From Candidatus Poribacteria bacterium (GTDB lineage: Bacteria > Poribacteria > WGA-4E > WGA-3G), in NCBI GenBank assembly GCA_965209095.1, contig OZ242381.1, positions 4,126,630-4,190,629 of the forward strand: a stretch of 64,000 bases of DNA. Reading direction: 5' to 3'. Shown here piece by piece: positions 16,095 through 22,946 of the stretch. A program made the position numbers and the translations under genes. Numbering within the stretch: position 1 is the first letter of the stretch; every line of letters begins with the position of its first letter. The notes under the pieces were generated by a model. That model saw nothing but the letters and a program-made list of their open reading frames with translations, searched no databases and was not told the origin of the DNA.

Positions 16095-19000
16095 ATGCAT
16101 AAGGTTATTGTTCGTCATGTTTCCCGAATAAGTTTCTGCTTTCTCGTAGGATTCCTCTGTCTACTTGTCTTTGAGTTGCAGGCAGAACCTTGGAAATGTG
16201 GTACTCCGTTATTATGTGATAACATCACACATGATCATAACATAGAAATCTCAAATGACAATAGTATCTTTACGTTGCCTGCTGCCCCAGCGAAAATAGG
16301 ACAATCCAATCGGTTCTTTGTTCACATACCTGAAGCATCAATTCAAGCTACATGTGTTGCTATTGGAAAGTATTGTTATATCTTTGTTGAAGACACTTAT
16401 GGAGATATGCTGACAGATGCCCAGGCAAAAGATGTCGCAGATACTTTTGATACAGAAATATATCCGAAAGTCCACCACTGGATCGGATCGGAAACACAAC
16501 CAGGTTTGGATCGTGACATCAGAATCACTATATTATTCCATGATGTTGGTATGAATCAATCTGGACAAGATTATGGGGGATATTTTTCTCCTGTGGATCT
16601 TCACGCTACACATCCGACAAGTAATAGACGCGATATAGTCTATATGGATATTTTTCAGTATAAACAACGTAGTAGACTTACTTTCACTAGCAGCCTTGCC
16701 CATGAATTCGCACATTTGATAAACTGGTATCAGAACGGGGGAAAATCGGATCAACGTTGGTTGGAAGAAGGTATTGCATCATTTGTTGAATGGGGTATTT
16801 ATGGATATGTTCATACGTTGTTTGTAGATGGTTATCTTGCAGCCCCAAGTATGTCATTGACAACTGCTAACACCTTTGACACATATTACGGTGCAGCGTT
16901 TATGTTTCTGCTTTACCTATATGAGAACCATGGGGGGCTCAATTTCATCAGGAAACTTGCAGATGAAGATAATCTCGGTTTACCAGCGATTGATACATCT
17001 TTGGATGATAGAGATAATTTAGTATCTATCTTTCTCAATTGGGCAACTGCAAATTGGTTGAACAACACAAAATATGGAAAGAGTCTAAGCTACCAACACC
17101 TACCAAATCGTAGAGTTACTTATCGCACTCCAAGGGTGATTCAGTACCCAAAGACTTCAGGGAACATACAAATAGACAGTTGGGGTGTCCAATACGTACT
17201 CTTTCAAAACTTACCAACAAAATTTGAATTGACCTTGAATTCAAACAGTGATTCATATCTATATGCAAATATTGCCTATTTTGCTCCAAACAGAAACCGA
17301 CCAATTATCAGATCTGTTCTACCTATATTAGATGTAAACGCATTAGATAATAAACGCATTAACAAAATACAGATAGGCAATCTAAGCAATGATGGTGAAA
17401 TTTTATTGATTATTACTTCTGAATACCCGCAAACTTTTCATTATACTGCAAAACAAGATGAGGATGTTACTACAATTGATATTGAAAAACTGATTCAGAC
17501 ACAAATACCCAATTTTCATCATTCTATTGATAGTTGGTTTCCACGTGAAGAAACCTATGCTCCCACAAGAAGAACACAACCAGTATTTAAAGACCACAAT
17601 TCATTAATTCCATCTGATCCGACTATTGAACTTGATCCTGTTTCCCAAATACATCTCTCCAGTAACTACAACGAGATTATGATAAAGGATAATATCGCTT
17701 ATGTAACCAGTGATTGGGGTTTAGAGATATTTTCATTGAATCCTATACCAATTCCAATCGGAGAAATTGCCACGCCAGGACAGGCACAAGCCGTAACAAT
17801 TGATGACGAACATGTCTATGTAGCAGACGGTAAATCTGGCGTTCTGATGATCAGTGTTAATCCTCCAACAGCACCACGTATTATAAAATCTTTGGGAGGA
17901 TTTCATGAGGCAAGAGACGTACACTTTGCAGATGATAGATTATATGCACTTGATACCCTCCGTGGTCTATTGATCTTCAATAGGCAGGATTTAGAAAATA
18001 ACGAAAATCCACAACCACGACAGTCATTTAAAACTGATGGTACCCCTTTGAAGGTTTCAACAAACGAAGATGGCAAAATATATCTTAGTGACAATGCAAG
18101 GGGGCTATACATTTTGACACCTGACAACCTTGGCGGATTCACTATATCGAACACCGTTCCATTATTAATTCCAGATTTTCAGATATTAGGAAGATATATT
18201 CTTGCTGCATCTGGTGATCTCCAAGTTGTAAATATAGCCAATATCTTTGATACGAATGTCATTTCTCGTGCTAATACCCCGGGTAGTGTCACGGCACTTA
18301 GTTTCTTTCAAGGATTACTCTACCTAACCGATAAACAGTCAGGACTACAAATTGTAAATGTGGATAGTGCGCAAACTCCTCGTGTAATCTCATCACATCC
18401 AACGATAGGTAATGCTGAAGATATTGCTCTCCGTTTTTCGGCAGAAGACAAAAAGACTTATGCACATATTGCTGATGGAATCGGAGGAATACAAACAATA
18501 GATGTGACACACCCCGACAATCCGATATGGGAAAACCACTATAATGCCAAAGGGGTTGCTTCAGCACTTGATGTGATAAACGATGGACAAAACACAACCA
18601 TTGCTATTGCAAACGGGACTGGTGGATTAAAAATCGTAGAATTAACAGATCCATTCATTGGCAGAATAGTGAACGAGATACGTTCTATTCCAGGGCAACA
18701 AGGTGTATTGTGTGTTAAAATTCTCAACCAATTTGCTTTTGTAGGTTCTGACACAGGATTGACAGTTACTAATATCATAACAGGTGAAATTCAGAGACAT
18801 ATTCGGACGCGACAACCTGTGTGGAGTATAGAATTAATCAAGAATCATGCATATCTATGTACAAAATCATTAATTGTAGTAGACATATCTATTCCGGAAC
18901 AGAGTCGTATCGTTGCACAACGAACACTGCCTGGTACAGCGTATAGAATTTCCTACGACGAATCTCATGCTTATGTTGCAGCACTTGAAGGAGGTGTACA

Positions 19001-19733
19001 GATATTTGATATAACAGAGCCTAACCAACCACGTCATATTTCATCTTTCTTAACTGATGGTTCAGCCACAAATGTCGTGATTAATAGTCATAGACTGTTT
19101 GTATTGGATAATCGTCATGGTGTGATTCAGATAGATACTCATAATCCTGAACAATTGACTATAGTTAGCGAATACGGTGATACACAATTGCCTATAGCTG
19201 CTGCAATAAGTGATAATCATCTATATCTACTTGATATTGATACATTGCAGATTATTGATACTCGTACAATGACACGTTTGAGTCGATATTCACAATTTCA
19301 TTCTCCTACAGATATTGTAGCAACTGGTTCTGCACTCTATGTAACTGATAAACATCAACTCAAGATTTTTCGTGTTAACACTCAACAGAATAATCTTGCT
19401 GTAGAAGAATATCCTCATAACTATTTAAAACAGACAACACAAATGTCCTTAACACCCAAAAACGAACTTCTACAGAATCATCCGAATCCATTTAACCCAG
19501 ACACCTGGATTCCCTACACACTCGCAAAACCCACAGATGTGTCTCTCTCAATTTATGATTCTTATGGTCGTCTAATCCTACAAAAATCGTTAGGATTTCA
19601 ATTCTCAGGTAAACATACTACCTATTGGGATGGGAATAATACTATTGGCGAACCTGTTGCAAGTGGGATATACTTTTATCAATTAACTGCCGATGGTTTT
19701 TCGTCTACACTTAAAATGGTTATACAAAGGTAG
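16095..19733 (+). CDS. Large secreted multidomain protein with a gluzincin-type HExxH metalloprotease motif, LVIVD beta-propeller repeats and a T9SS-type C-terminal sorting domain.
   Basis: Signal peptide present. HEFAHLINW is followed by EEG about 20 aa downstream. More than twelve G-[LV]-x-I-[VFI]-[DN]-[VI] units preceding a short P-rich turn (the LVIVD pattern). The C-terminus reads NHPNPFNPDTWIPY...IYD..G..............WDG.......ASGIYFYQL. Confidence 0.7.
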   Translation: MHKVIVRHVSRISFCFLVGFLCLLVFELQAEPWKCGTPLLCDNITHDHNIEISNDNSIFTLPAAPAKIGQSNRFFVHIPEASIQATCVAIGKYCYIFVEDTYGDMLTDAQAKDVADTFDTEIYPKVHHWIGSETQPGLDRDIRITILFHDVGMNQSGQDYGGYFSPVDLHATHPTSNRRDIVYMDIFQYKQRSRLTFTSSLAHEFAHLINWYQNGGKSDQRWLEEGIASFVEWGIYGYVHTLFVDGYLAAPSMSLTTANTFDTYYGAAFMFLLYLYENHGGLNFIRKLADEDNLGLPAIDTSLDDRDNLVSIFLNWATANWLNNTKYGKSLSYQHLPNRRVTYRTPRVIQYPKTSGNIQIDSWGVQYVLFQNLPTKFELTLNSNSDSYLYANIAYFAPNRNRPIIRSVLPILDVNALDNKRINKIQIGNLSNDGEILLIITSEYPQTFHYTAKQDEDVTTIDIEKLIQTQIPNFHHSIDSWFPREETYAPTRRTQPVFKDHNSLIPSDPTIELDPVSQIHLSSNYNEIMIKDNIAYVTSDWGLEIFSLNPIPIPIGEIATPGQAQAVTIDDEHVYVADGKSGVLMISVNPPTAPRIIKSLGGFHEARDVHFADDRLYALDTLRGLLIFNRQDLENNENPQPRQSFKTDGTPLKVSTNEDGKIYLSDNARGLYILTPDNLGGFTISNTVPLLIPDFQILGRYILAASGDLQVVNIANIFDTNVISRANTPGSVTALSFFQGLLYLTDKQSGLQIVNVDSAQTPRVISSHPTIGNAEDIALRFSAEDKKTYAHIADGIGGIQTIDVTHPDNPIWENHYNAKGVASALDVINDGQNTTIAIANGTGGLKIVELTDPFIGRIVNEIRSIPGQQGVLCVKILNQFAFVGSDTGLTVTNIITGEIQRHIRTRQPVWSIELIKNHAYLCTKSLIVVDISIPEQSRIVAQRTLPGTAYRISYDESHAYVAALEGGVQIFDITEPNQPRHISSFLTDGSATNVVINSHRLFVLDNRHGVIQIDTHNPEQLTIVSEYGDTQLPIAAAISDNHLYLLDIDTLQIIDTRTMTRLSRYSQFHSPTDIVATGSALYVTDKHQLKIFRVNTQQNNLAVEEYPHNYLKQTTQMSLTPKNELLQNHPNPFNPDTWIPYTLAKPTDVSLSIYDSYGRLILQKSLGFQFSGKHTTYWDGNNTIGEPVASGIYFYQLTADGFSSTLKMVIQR

Positions 19734-19776
19734 TATAAATCTAATGCTTAGTCAACATCTGTTTGATAGTTCAATT

Positions 19777-19913
19777 GTAGGTCGGATAGAGGCACGAAAC
19801 CCGACAGGATAGCCACAATCATATATGTCCAAATCAACGTCTAATGCGCGTGGCAGAATACGCGTTTGGTATTCTGCATGATTTGTCGGGTTTCGTGCCT
19901 CTACCCGATCTAC
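19777..19913. repeat. Hairpin-type repeat with 29-bp arms (GTAGGTCGGATAGAGGCACGAAACCCGAC and its complement) around a 79-bp loop.
   Basis: Two mismatches in the arms. The loop carries ccaaatcaacgtctaatgcgcgt, the same motif found in the family-1 MITE at 60405. AGGCACGAAACC also occurs at 37040. Confidence 0.55.
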
Positions 19914-20270
19914 AAGTTAGGTGTTGACACAGCACTAACTAATAACTGCAAGTAACTTCTTAGTATCTCTTCGTCCAGAACATCTTCGTACAGAACATGT
20001 ATGTAACCCTATAATAATTGTAAACGTTAAAATGCATAGAATGGGTATGATTTATTCACACAAATACATAGTTATTAAGATGTCTTATTAATGGTAATTG
20101 GACACTTTGATGTCGTAACTACAGCGTTTACATGCTGTTTCTCCGAACGGGAACGAACAAAATTAGTTAGGTTAGAATAACCGTTCGGCATACCTTTTAG
20201 ATTACTATAGTTCACGCTCAGATCAGACCAGTATGTATAGCTCATGCAGAATCTGTAAAGGAGATTTCGG

Positions 20271-21935
20271 ATGGTCGAGAACAGTGTATCGGGAAGTTTT
20301 AGAGGTATAGAGATTAGTTTTAACTATAATGGGCCGCATGTTGTTATGAGTGTTCTGAATACAACAGATGAAGGTAAACTACTTCGTGTGATGTTTCAGC
20401 AACAGCCGCGAAGCGGTCGTGTCAATTGGACAACATTTCAGTTGACTGGCCAACTCCAGGAAGTAGTGGTACCACCTGAGGTAATGCAGTCACACAAATT
20501 AGCATTCTATGTTGATAATCATGAACCGATTGCAACTTATACTGATAAAATCATAGATGAATTAAAGCAGATACAGGAGAAAAGTAATCTGGATAATCCT
20601 CCAAATGTCCCTGGACCAGAATTGGATCAGCAATCCCCTCTACTTACCAAAAATGATGGATTTGATGCTTCAATAAATAACCAGGATACCGAAAAAACGC
20701 CGACTGGTATTCATAATGATAACGTCATAGATCACACAAGCAAAGTAAAGCCAGATGGAACTGATTTTCAACATGCCTCTGATGACACAGATGACGTTCA
20801 AACATCTACGAAAGTAGATGACATTAGACAGAATGAAACTGGTGATAAAAAAACAGTTACTCCCTCAACAACATCCAATACAAACCCATCTGATATTTCT
20901 AATGGACCTCAGCCAAAGGATCAGAATGATATTGTAGATAGGTTAACATCTGAAGCGAAGTCTAATCTGTTAAGAAATGGGAAACCCAAAACAACCAGAA
21001 TCAGTAGACCTATTCCTGATGTAAATACTGAATTACAGTTCAAAATTAAAGTGCCATCTCTACCAAAAAGTGCTACGAAAAAACAAACGACTTTTATGCC
21101 AGTTCAAACTGCCCAATTCTCAGCAACAAACCAACAAAAGCAAGGGTTTTTTGGTAATTTAGCTGGAGCATTTGGTTTATCGTTTGCAAATAAGAAACAG
21201 TACTATATTGAGCAAAACAAACATCTTCATGACAGATTTCATGCTGATTTAGAAAAAATGGAGAATGACTACAATAACGGTAATGGCATTCCACTTGAAT
21301 CATGGGATATTGCAGCGTTAAATGAACAACAGACTGCAGTTCTTCTACTTAACCTTATGGTTAACGAGATAAGTGAATGGAAAAAGGATACCCAGAAAGC
21401 AAGTTCAACAGAAGATACACTTGTTAAATCTCTTGAGGAAATTGAAAGGGAACTGAAACGGACCTTGAAGCATACCAGGGGTATAAATGCCCCGTCTCCC
21501 ACTCTTTTTCCTGATAGGAACGCCACCTCTGATCAAGAATTAGAACGTATTCAAAAAGACTGTGATAGTTACTTACAACGGTTTTCTGAAAAGTTATCTA
21601 CACTTGAACAAAAACATGCAGAAAAAGTCCGCGTACCAGCATTCAAAAAGTTTTTGTTGGAATTTGTGCGTGATAAACTCTTTCCTTCAGTTGCAGAATT
21701 CAGTTCTCTTAAATCAGTCCAGTCAAGGTTAAGTTGGTTTCTTGATTTAATTGACTATGAATTAATGCCGATTGAACCGGGTGTAACTAAGTTTTCTCCT
21801 GAACTTCATGAACTGAAAGATGTCTGTAGCAGTGGTCTTGATACTGATACTATTGTTGAAGTTGTCACACCTGGATTACAATTGAAGGGCGGGAAACGGA
21901 TTGTACAGAATGCTGTTGTGATTCAAGCGGAGTAG
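20271..21935 (+). CDS. GrpE-like nucleotide-exchange-factor domain at the C-terminus, fused to a low-complexity N-terminal extension of about 340 aa.
   Basis: The C-terminal FSPELHEL...DTIVEVVTPGLQLKGGKRIVQNAVVI resembles the GrpE beta-domain FDPNLHEA...VVEV.QKGYKL.DRVLRPAMV.V. The preceding helices, FKKFLLEFVRDKLFPSVAEF, resemble GrpE KFAKDLLPVLDNLERA. The N-terminal two-thirds is rich in T/S/N/D/Q/P with no recognisable domain, and the start is uncertain. Confidence 0.5.
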   Translation: MVENSVSGSFRGIEISFNYNGPHVVMSVLNTTDEGKLLRVMFQQQPRSGRVNWTTFQLTGQLQEVVVPPEVMQSHKLAFYVDNHEPIATYTDKIIDELKQIQEKSNLDNPPNVPGPELDQQSPLLTKNDGFDASINNQDTEKTPTGIHNDNVIDHTSKVKPDGTDFQHASDDTDDVQTSTKVDDIRQNETGDKKTVTPSTTSNTNPSDISNGPQPKDQNDIVDRLTSEAKSNLLRNGKPKTTRISRPIPDVNTELQFKIKVPSLPKSATKKQTTFMPVQTAQFSATNQQKQGFFGNLAGAFGLSFANKKQYYIEQNKHLHDRFHADLEKMENDYNNGNGIPLESWDIAALNEQQTAVLLLNLMVNEISEWKKDTQKASSTEDTLVKSLEEIERELKRTLKHTRGINAPSPTLFPDRNATSDQELERIQKDCDSYLQRFSEKLSTLEQKHAEKVRVPAFKKFLLEFVRDKLFPSVAEFSSLKSVQSRLSWFLDLIDYELMPIEPGVTKFSPELHELKDVCSSGLDTDTIVEVVTPGLQLKGGKRIVQNAVVIQAE

Positions 21936-21938
21936 CAT

Positions 21939-22946
21939 GTGATTATTCGAGAAGATCTTCTCCAAAGAATTGCGAAAATCCCACAAGTTGATATTGGTCA
22001 TTTTCCAACCCCGCTTGAGGCGTGTCCGCGCCTCACCGAAGCACTCGGTGGCCCCCGTATCTACATTAAACGCGAAGACTGTTCTGGATTAGCAATGGGT
22101 GGGAACAAAGTCCGTCAATTGACTTTCACAATTGGCGATGCAGTTGCCCAAGGAGCAGATACAATCGTTCATGGGGCAGCATCTCAATCCAACCATTGCC
22201 GTCAAGCTGCTGCTGCTTGCAATAAACTCGGATTAAATTGTTATCTACGCCTTGCCAAAGATCATAAAAGTATCATACAGGGTAATTTGCTTTTAGATAA
22301 TCTGTTTGGGGCAGATATTGAGATCGTAGATATACCATTTGGTCCTGAATTAGAGGAATATAAGGCTCAACTTGCCGAGAAGTTAAAAGCAGACGGCTTA
22401 AACCCTTATGTCGTTACTTCACCGCGATCAACAGCACTTGCAGCAGTTGCCTTCACTTGGTGTGTCGCAGAAATACACGAGCAGCAAGAAGAAATGGGAA
22501 TAGATGCTGATTATATATACACCGCATCTGTAGGAGGAACACAAGCAGGATTAGTATTGGGTAGGAAAGCTATGAATATGAAACTGAAACCTTATGGGAT
22601 TGCTCCAATCCATTGGGAAGGGAAATATGACCGTATGCGTAATGCTGCGAATTCAGCTGCATCACTATTAGACATTGATATAAACATATTGGATACCGAT
22701 ATACAGAATAGTGATGATTATATTGGAGAAGGATACGGTCATCTCACGCCAGAGTGTATTTCAGCACTTAAATTGGTCGCAAGGACAGAAGGCATAATAC
22801 TTGATCCGGTTTATACTTCAAAGGCGATGGCTTGTTTAATTCAACATATCAAGCAGAACAAATTTGATAGGAATGATACTGTAATCTTCCTACATACTGG
22901 CGGAACACCAGCACTTTTTGCGTATAATGACGATATTCAATTCTAA
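21939..22946 (+). CDS. PLP-dependent D-cysteine desulfhydrase / ACC deaminase family protein.
   Basis: The N-terminus reads FPTPLE...IYIKREDCSGLAMGGNKVRQL, which contains the PLP lysine context. The tryptophan-synthase-beta-like fold length is 335 aa. Confidence 0.75.
   Translation: MIIREDLLQRIAKIPQVDIGHFPTPLEACPRLTEALGGPRIYIKREDCSGLAMGGNKVRQLTFTIGDAVAQGADTIVHGAASQSNHCRQAAAACNKLGLNCYLRLAKDHKSIIQGNLLLDNLFGADIEIVDIPFGPELEEYKAQLAEKLKADGLNPYVVTSPRSTALAAVAFTWCVAEIHEQQEEMGIDADYIYTASVGGTQAGLVLGRKAMNMKLKPYGIAPIHWEGKYDRMRNAANSAASLLDIDINILDTDIQNSDDYIGEGYGHLTPECISALKLVARTEGIILDPVYTSKAMACLIQHIKQNKFDRNDTVIFLHTGGTPALFAYNDDIQF

Follow-up and report, generated by a model that had tools for sequence, protein, structure and literature searches.

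The stretch of DNA analyzed here (the window) comprises 64,000 nucleotides (64 kb) of contig OZ242381.1 from a Candidatus Poribacteria bacterium, and the gene of interest lies at positions 20271-21935 on its plus strand, where an unbroken open reading frame (ORF) encodes 554 aa and ends in a TAG stop codon. We find that its product is a four-part protein in which a beta-sandwich, a disordered linker, a three-helix domain and a GrpE-fold unit follow one another, and that its C-terminus is homologous to GrpE in fold and beta-wing, is highly divergent, and lies outside the curated GrpE family by sequence criteria. The architecture rests on an alignment of 35 homologues and an AlphaFold model, whose confidence is given below as the predicted local distance difference test (pLDDT), and the features of the gene are as follows.

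20258..20263, plus strand: Shine-Dalgarno-like AAGGAG, 7 nt 5' of the ATG (read from the sequence)
20271..21935, plus strand: complete coding sequence of a multi-domain GrpE-fold protein of a Poribacteria-wide family (ORF list and 170 homologues)
20271..20594, plus strand: N-terminal beta-sandwich with capping helix, residues 1-108 (eight strands, helix 91-108, pLDDT ~90, many near-invariant columns)
20595..21038, plus strand: variable acidic/polar disordered linker, residues 109-256 (pLDDT 27-35, length-variable, poorly alignable, mean majority-residue frequency 0.35)
21039..21074, plus strand: short linear motif FKIKVPSLPKSA (F257-K-I-K-V-P-S-L-P-K-S-A268), residues 257-268 (alignment of 35)
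21138..21182, plus strand: weaker linker motif K-x-G-F-F-G-x-L-A-G-A-x-G-L-S, Gly/Ala-rich and hydrophobic, residues 290-304 (alignment, model)
21183..21479, plus strand: family-specific three-helix domain, residues 305-403 (helices 2-31, 48-72 and 78-99 of the C-terminal model, pLDDT 81-96)
21480..21530, plus strand: conserved extended loop, residues 404-420, with the pattern T402-R-G-x-x-x-P-x-P-T411 (alignment, model)
21531..21749, plus strand: GrpE-like stalk helix and short helical pair, residues 421-493
21750..21932, plus strand: GrpE-like C-terminal beta-wing, residues 494-554 (six strands in the model)

Among 5.8 billion proteins searched, 170 homologues were found, nearly all of them full-length (490-590 aa), with identities down to 37%, and those that bear a name are called 'hypothetical protein, Candidatus Poribacteria', apart from one entry of the Joint Genome Institute (JGI) named GrpE. 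The N-terminal domain is present in 34 of the 35 aligned sequences, and Foldseek finds for it (residues 1-108) only generic immunoglobulin (Ig)-like or sandwich matches with E-values of at least 0.03. The linker of ~200 residues (109-304 overall, with 56% S/T/N/Q/D/P and a pLDDT of ~30) holds two conserved islands, 257-268 and 290-304. Six of the 12 positions of the first are invariant in the 35 sequences (F257, I259, V261, P262, P265 and S267); within a larger set of 184 sequences the pattern F.I.VP..P.S occurs in 119, all of the Poribacteria type, is missing from only 7 of ~126 Poribacteria-type proteins, and is absent in the distant relatives. The second island is marked by G292, G295, F294 and G302 (frequencies of 0.94, 0.86, 0.74 and 0.74, respectively) and includes a short helix at 295-300 that is modeled with low confidence. 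The three-helix domain is not part of canonical GrpE, and Y334, G337, G339, W345, L360-N-L-M-V364 with E366, and W370 are invariant within it. In the loop that follows, which has no secondary structure in the model, the invariant residues are T402, R403, G404, P408, P410 and T411, the first two of which still belong to the helix before it. Inspection of the sequence reveals neither a signal peptide nor a transmembrane segment, and the protein would be cytoplasmic.

Codon-level comparison with four orthologues gives ratios of nonsynonymous to synonymous substitution rates (dN/dS) of 0.07-0.11 for the N-domain, 0.54-0.73 for the linker and 0.08-0.12 for the C-terminal 250 residues. Purifying selection thus acts on the N-domain with the same strength as on the C-terminus. 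A preliminary description of this locus, which correctly delimited the ORF, regarded the N-terminal two-thirds as a 340-aa disordered extension of low complexity with no recognizable domain. That view holds for residues 109-304 in terms of composition, model confidence and substitution rate, and it fails for residues 1-108 and 305-403, which are conserved and folded in the model, the actual layout being one of four parts. An alternative is that the long frame is an annotation artefact, with an internal start near residue 350 yielding a normal-sized GrpE and the upstream 1 kb being non-coding or a separate gene, and the linker is indeed compositionally biased and fast-evolving. However, the low dN/dS of the N-domain means that this domain is translated and constrained and an internal start is therefore rejected, as it is contradicted also by the single open frame in all homologues, by the linker motif being in that frame, by the Shine-Dalgarno sequence at the annotated ATG, and by a conserved helical domain that begins at residue 305, upstream of the supposed start. 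We give this alternative almost no credence, and the integrity of the gene, its annotated start codon and the domain layout are established by computation.

The GrpE homology of the C-terminus was accepted because structure decides where a Pfam match is sub-threshold, and several results at the sequence level count against the assignment. The full-length protein matches neither the Pfam nor the NCBIfam GrpE models, and its last 115 aa match PF01025 over model positions 108-162 of 165 with 14.9 bits and an E-value of 0.021, where the gathering cut-off is 25.8 bits. Hence the Pfam check that had been proposed in the preliminary description does return GrpE, at a score below the gathering level, and it is the structure that favors homology. 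In addition, a profile made from the Poribacteria C-termini alone matches no GrpE in the PDB, and a full-length profile run against PDB sequences retrieves only low-complexity noise; these failures arise because the linker dominates the profile at full length and because the one restricted to the Poribacteria C-termini is too specific. On the other side, Pfam GrpE is the commonest family when homologues are scanned singly (9 of 35 at E <= 1, the best at 1.5e-5). In a representative search of 1.84 billion proteins the profile of Poribacteria C-termini reaches a true GrpE, that of Metamycoplasma alkalescens (E 9.9e-4, profile positions 63-250), which is compositionally biased and so is a match of little weight alone. 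With a profile that covers 28 diverse members, the top of the PDB ranking is taken by GrpE chains, namely 3a6m and 4ani (T. thermophilus and G. kaustophilus GrpE), with E-values of only 0.2-0.26, and the alignment stays in register to the extreme C-terminus.

The structural evidence comes from the second of two models. In the first, full-length model the C-terminal wing was poor (pLDDT 50-60) given a shallow alignment, which is why Foldseek found only weak generic beta-sandwich matches with it. An AlphaFold2 model of residues 305-554 built from a more diverse alignment has a pLDDT of 92.1 and a predicted template modeling score (pTM) of 0.85, and in it three helices and a loop lead to a helix of 30 residues, which is followed by two shorter helices and a beta domain with six strands. 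The first 11 Foldseek matches to this model are all GrpE or GrpEL1 (E 4.9e-5 to 1.1e-2) and the next has an E-value of 0.44. The predicted order of elements in residues 421-554, namely a long stalk helix, a short helical domain or pair and a C-terminal beta-wing, is the fold order of GrpE, GrpEL1 and Mge1 (PF01025), and within the beta-wing the F-x-P-x-x-H motif, the glycine of the (K/P)G(Y/L) turn, the arginine corresponding to R183 and the hydrophobic end strand are all in register. Both peptides that had first suggested GrpE, KFLLEFVRDKL... and FSPELHEL...TIVEVVTPGLQLKGGKRIVQNAVVI, are present in the translation. When E. coli GrpE is aligned transitively to the family profile by way of Mycoplasma GrpE, the invariant H513 coincides with the histidine of the GrpE FDPxxH motif, and R543, which is conserved in at least 90% of sequences, coincides with E. 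coli R183, a hot spot of DnaK contact, as is V192. By analogy of fold, the C-terminal unit may also adopt a cruciform homodimer arrangement like that of GrpE.

According to a 2025 review, GrpE has one conserved architecture across kingdoms (PMC12987570), and it shares with the present protein a disordered segment that precedes the helical part (PMC12987570). The differences are considerable. The present protein has 554 aa, compared with the ~180-250 aa and short disordered N-terminus of GrpE, and adds the beta-sandwich of residues 1-108, the three-helix domain of residues 305-403 and a motif-bearing linker of ~200 residues. It is below all curated sequence thresholds, and its DnaK-contact signature is partly altered, in that QNA stands in place of RPA in the GrpE end motif and V192 corresponds to Q552 (R in relatives). 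Its gene has no dnaK/dnaJ/hrcA neighborhood, and no CIRCE (controlling inverted repeat of chaperone expression) heat-shock operator was found in the window.

The immediate surroundings are of a different kind, and the two flanking genes are listed here.

16095..19733, plus strand: LVIVD-repeat/beta-propeller protein, 1212 aa, with a FlgD-Ig/type IX secretion system-type (Por_Secre_tail) C-terminal sorting domain (Pfam)
21939..22946, plus strand: pyridoxal phosphate (PLP) enzyme, 335 aa, fold-type II, of the D-cysteine desulfhydrase/1-aminocyclopropane-1-carboxylate deaminase/CuyA family (PALP 3.7e-45)

The D-cysteine desulfhydrase-type gene is directly downstream, as had been noted, with the TAG stop at 21933-21935, a CAT that forms a 3-nt spacer, the GTG start at 21939 and a GGAG located 6 nt 5' of that GTG. 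The best NCBIfam match of the PLP enzyme is CuyA (D-cysteate sulfo-lyase) with 315.8 bits, under the cut-off of 450, and it also scores 257.5 bits with the coenzyme M enzyme XcbE, all equivalog cut-offs being higher than its scores. Upstream, a gap of 537 bp separates the 554-aa ORF from the LVIVD-repeat gene, whose product is a secreted protein with no evident functional link to the GrpE-fold gene.

This arrangement is conserved across the phylum. In a scan of one genome per GTDB species, the gene was present in at least 95 species genomes, and the 80 loci that were kept are all from Poribacteria or unnamed metagenome-assembled genomes. The PLP-enzyme gene is directly 3' on the same strand in 77 of the 79 loci with enough downstream sequence, and a homologue of the LVIVD protein is found in 68 of the 80 Poribacteria loci, and also in L001, L002 and L006 and not in L007, 5' of the GrpE-like gene where inspected, while the other neighbors vary between loci. 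The GrpE-fold and PLP-enzyme genes form an operon in which the latter is probably translationally coupled to the former, and the GrpE-fold gene behaves as a core-genome rather than a defense-island gene, with no match of its product to the PADLOC defense models. A scan for sigma-70 promoters was uninformative, as such sites were rarer than in shuffled sequences.

Other features of the region were recorded. Between the LVIVD gene and the GrpE-fold gene, positions 19775-19915 contain an inverted repeat whose arms of 32 nt are 94% complementary and stand 77 nt apart, with a terminator-like hairpin inside it at 19853-19877. Its arm core, AGAGGCACGAAACCCGACA, is also found as an inverted pair in a non-orthologous place of another Poribacteria locus (L012, 13777-13834), and this recurrence suggests that the repeat is an element similar to repetitive extragenic palindromic (REP) sequences or miniature inverted-repeat transposable elements (MITEs). 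Three of the proteins encoded in the window are very large WD40 beta-propellers, with Pfam E-values that reach 1e-190, and such proteins are also found at the end of locus L001; they fit the eukaryote-like repeat proteins reported for Poribacteria. At 140-2083 on the minus strand lies a gene for a 647-aa protein with DUF6785 (E 1.1e-154) and DUF6784.

The conserved neighbors invite an explanation in which the GrpE fold has been recruited for a function that does not involve Hsp70, as a dimeric scaffold or regulator of the PLP enzyme in sulfur or amino-acid metabolism, or as a structural adaptor for the LVIVD surface protein. It would account for the PLP enzyme being the only strongly conserved neighbor, for the frequency of the LVIVD protein, for an Hsp70 gene being nearby in 0 of 80 loci, for the extreme divergence from GrpE with loss of some DnaK-contact positions, and for the two additional conserved domains. 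It is at odds with what is seen in the relatives of the protein, where the 250-aa C-terminal module is fused to an Hsp70-like ATPase and, in gene clusters, always adjoins one, and with the conservation of the R183-equivalent arginine and the beta-wing histidine. Moreover, we know of no case in which a GrpE fold works without an Hsp70. We regard this explanation, the strongest of the alternatives, as rather unlikely.

The relatives in question extend well beyond the Poribacteria-wide family. In the representative search, a second tier of proteins with 335-650 aa matches the whole 250-aa C-terminal module (E 1e-39 to 1e-25), and a third tier matches the beta-wing only, at the end of long coiled-coil proteins. 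Some second-tier proteins are encoded in clusters of a type exemplified by the following.

L088, 721-14910 (also L089, L003 and L004/L005): Tubulin_2/Hsp70-like cluster of ~8 genes in Poribacteria and relatives

One gene order is shared by the loci of P0127, P0143, P0157 and P0131 (L003, L004/L005, L088 and L089). In it, a small membrane protein is followed by Tubulin_2 (~1100 aa), an Hsp70-like protein (~900 aa) and a 410-aa protein, then by two adjacent paralogues of the module, and finally by a 340-aa protein and an Ig-domain protein of ~850 aa (Ig/AMPK1_CBM). The profile of Poribacteria C-termini matches the module proteins of these clusters at E 7e-39 to 1.5e-25 over positions ~5-251, a reciprocal hidden Markov model (HMM) matches the ORF of the window at 5e-96, and the cluster paralogues also have the three-helix domain, as profile positions 3-247 match. 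The N-terminal beta-sandwich is common to the window protein and the second of the two module paralogues in each cluster; an HMM of this domain detects P0182 (8e-9), P0157 (the L088 340-aa gene; 2e-7), P0153 (9e-7) and P0129 (5e-6) in the 184-sequence set, and the L088 340-aa gene (2.5e-8) when run among cluster genes. The cluster module proteins P0127, P0131, P0157 and P0143 thus share with the present protein the entire 250-aa module, including the TRG..P.PT loop, with one paralogue per cluster sharing the beta-sandwich and some being from Poribacteria genomes. They differ in having 340-450 aa, in the absence of the long linker and the FKIKVPSLP motif, and in being encoded directly after the Hsp70-like ATPase, whereas the gene studied here is dispersed and paired with that of the PLP enzyme.

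The Hsp70-like ATPase of the clusters consists of three Ig-like domains and an Hsp70 nucleotide-binding domain. It resembles DnaK in this latter domain only (model positions 5-238, 119 bits versus a cut-off of 648), and the nucleotide-binding domain is the part of DnaK that GrpE binds. Some of these ATPases are named 'Hsp70 family protein, Candidatus Poribacteria' by NCBI. In P0143 (1195 aa, L004 8001-11588) the association is covalent, as this one protein joins Ig-like domains to an Hsp70 ATPase (PF00012 at 1.9e-26, with the motifs DFGTTNS and DFGGGT in its sequence) and to the GrpE-like module. An insertion sequence (IS) element (HTH_Tnp_1/rve) is inserted just upstream, between P0143 and two Tubulin_2 genes. 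The P0143 fusion and the adjacency of the module to an Hsp70-like ATPase in five loci lend indirect support to an Hsp70 link for the module. Both types of gene can occur in one genome. The L088 cluster (P0157) is on a contig of 4,252,156 bp, the length of the Poribacteria chromosome OZ242325.1, which carries the dispersed gene ~0.5 Mb away and has the same GC content, and another chromosome, of 5,916,109 bp, carries both the cluster ATPase gene and the dispersed gene. Judged from the sequences, Poribacteria carry a tubulin-like/Hsp70-like cluster with two GrpE-like paralogues, and the gene studied is a third paralogue, which is dispersed and enlarged. Some of the module's relatives depart from the present protein in that they would be membrane-anchored. 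By eye, P0130, P0137, P0147 and P0160 appear to have a signal-like sequence at the N-terminus, then a conserved extracytoplasmic region and, ahead of the coiled-coil/GrpE-like part, a single hydrophobic segment, and these four proteins could transmit a signal from outside the cell to an Hsp70-like ATPase in the cytoplasm.

The presence of tubulin and Hsp70 homologues together raises the question of whether the protein is a component of a nucleoside triphosphate-dependent conflict or defense system. Kaur, Burroughs, Iyer and Aravind (2020, eLife) described GTPase-centered tubulin/HSP70 systems and pairs of HSP70 and GrpE in GAP1-N2 neighborhoods (PMC7159879), and their systems resemble those described here in having a non-housekeeping Hsp70 with its own GrpE-type partner and tubulin-superfamily neighbors (PMC7159879). 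The relatives of our protein are in clusters with Tubulin_2 and HSP70, and in L004 the cluster is interrupted by an IS element. However, the systems of Kaur et al. are defined by DO-GTPases and GAP1 and are mainly from actinobacteria and firmicutes (PMC7159879), and the present gene is not in such a neighborhood. It is at a fixed, phylum-wide position beside a metabolic enzyme, unlike the variable contents of defense islands. PADLOC matches neither the protein nor the cluster proteins, there is no effector-like domain, no J-domain or GTPase was recognized in the cluster genes, and neither DO-GTPase nor GAP1 was detected in the protein or the cluster genes using PADLOC and Walker-A patterns, with no dedicated model for GAP1. 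Specifically, a GTPase-type Walker A was not seen in the cluster genes of L088, L089 and L003, the only two sites that fit the pattern being in the 860-aa Ig-domain protein of L088. A role in conflict is an improbable explanation for the dispersed gene, and it suits the cluster paralogues better. Makarova and Koonin (2010) described operons of FtsZ-like (Tubulin_2) genes with neither Hsp70 nor GrpE in them (PMC2875224; PMC9871819), and the literature searched yielded no description of this GrpE-fold family or of the Tubulin_2/Hsp70 cluster.

The phylum-wide occurrence of the gene could also mean that it encodes the housekeeping GrpE of these organisms, i.e., the sole exchange factor of DnaK, which has gained N-terminal additions and has moved away from dnaK. 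Its core-gene behavior in at least 95 Poribacteria species genomes, its stable position and the naming of one member as GrpE by the JGI pipeline would agree with this. Against it, the protein scores far under the curated models (NCBIfam none; Pfam 14.9 versus 25.8 bits), even though a housekeeping GrpE is usually conserved well enough that the E. coli protein still matches Mycoplasma GrpE at 1e-13; the same query finds nothing in the window or in the 80 loci. The closest relatives are, furthermore, paralogues dedicated to a non-canonical Hsp70 cluster. We consider a housekeeping role very improbable. Rather, the protein is probably a specialized Hsp70 helper, because its relatives adjoin or are fused to unusual Hsp70-like ATPases.

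We propose, with somewhat more confidence than doubt, that the protein is an Hsp70 co-factor, that is, a nucleotide-exchange factor with an adaptor arm. By this mechanism, the GrpE unit would dimerize through its helices, as GrpE does, and its beta-wing and stalk would dock on the nucleotide-binding domain of an Hsp70-type partner, which may be the Hsp70-like protein of the cluster where the genome has one, or the housekeeping DnaK. Docking would open the nucleotide cleft and thereby promote the release of ADP. The N-terminal sandwich and the linker motifs would form the adaptor arm, by which a specific partner or client is recruited or displaced. Peptides that bind to Hsp70 are hydrophobic and basic, as is the FKIKVPSLP motif, which makes this motif a candidate pseudo-substrate for the substrate site of Hsp70. 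The motif precedes the GrpE unit within a disordered segment, like the disordered N-terminal tail of E. coli GrpE, for which a pseudo-substrate role has been proposed though not proven (PMC12987570). The protein and the PLP enzyme encoded downstream would be produced jointly, and the enzyme may be the partner in question. We infer all of these activities, from exchange, Hsp70 binding and dimerization to the functions of the motifs and of the PLP enzyme. What computation shows, besides the integrity and layout of the gene, is the GrpE fold, the family relationships, the fusion and clustering of relatives with Hsp70, the conservation across the phylum and the operon with the PLP enzyme.

A number of observations weigh against the proposal of an Hsp70 co-factor. 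The conserved synteny partner of the gene is a PLP enzyme and not a chaperone, and no DnaK-like, Hsp70-like or E. coli-like GrpE gene is within 10 kb in any of the 80 orthologous loci. Neither a canonical grpE nor a dnaK was found in the 64-kb window by tblastn with E. coli GrpE and DnaK sequences, a search in which the GrpE query did not detect the 554-aa ORF itself, and local searches of the window for genes of Hsp70, DnaK, J-domain proteins and Tubulin_2 were negative. The statement that the gene is away from any dnaK operon is therefore borne out in the window and in the 80 loci. Unlike its cluster paralogues, the gene is not downstream of genes for an Hsp70-like ATPase and Tubulin_2, and the 5,444,765-bp contig of the window is not among the best 120 of 235 Hsp70 matches listed. 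To these are added the altered residues at the positions of V192 and RPA, the model of residues 305-554 being a monomer prediction, and the extra helical domain and beta-sandwich, which have no precedent in GrpE. The preliminary description had left a choice between a divergent accessory GrpE-type factor and a recruited GrpE fold, and this framing agrees with a GrpE fold of sub-threshold sequence that has no dnaK operon and has relatives beside or fused to Hsp70-like ATPases.

Eukaryotic BAG-domain exchange factors, in which the exchange module is joined to targeting domains by flexible linkers, couple Hsp70 cycling to a given client or place. They may offer a functional analogy for the present protein, and an analogy only, as the BAG domain is a three-helix bundle of unrelated fold with no evolutionary relationship to GrpE. 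As a wider and more tentative proposal, one that we see as possible rather than probable, bacteria may own modular, client-specific co-chaperones of the GrpE type, in which a GrpE unit is combined with a helical domain, a motif-bearing tether and a beta-sandwich adaptor. The family would serve an Ig-domain Hsp70-like ATPase that works with a tubulin-like protein, and its dispersed member would couple that ATPase, or DnaK, to a PLP enzyme of sulfur or amino-acid metabolism.

GrpE is usually treated as a single-purpose cofactor of DnaK with a single architecture, and the family described herein shows the GrpE fold inside larger, adaptor-like proteins. It is duplicated within genomes and is genetically tied to an Hsp70-like ATPase without the usual DnaK layout and to a protein of the tubulin superfamily. 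Poribacteria are sponge-associated and uncultured, and tests will need recombinant proteins. If the Hsp70 link were to fail, this would be the first GrpE fold to work outside the Hsp70 cycle. If the link is true, it would provide the first functional clue for a gene that is conserved throughout an uncultivated phylum, a testable set of partners for the uncharacterized Tubulin_2/Hsp70 clusters, and a bacterial example of exchange factors being used as specific adaptors. Should the modular co-chaperone proposal also be true, the family would represent a bacterial counterpart of BAG-like targeting logic and would offer a handle on the function of the Tubulin_2/Hsp70 clusters.

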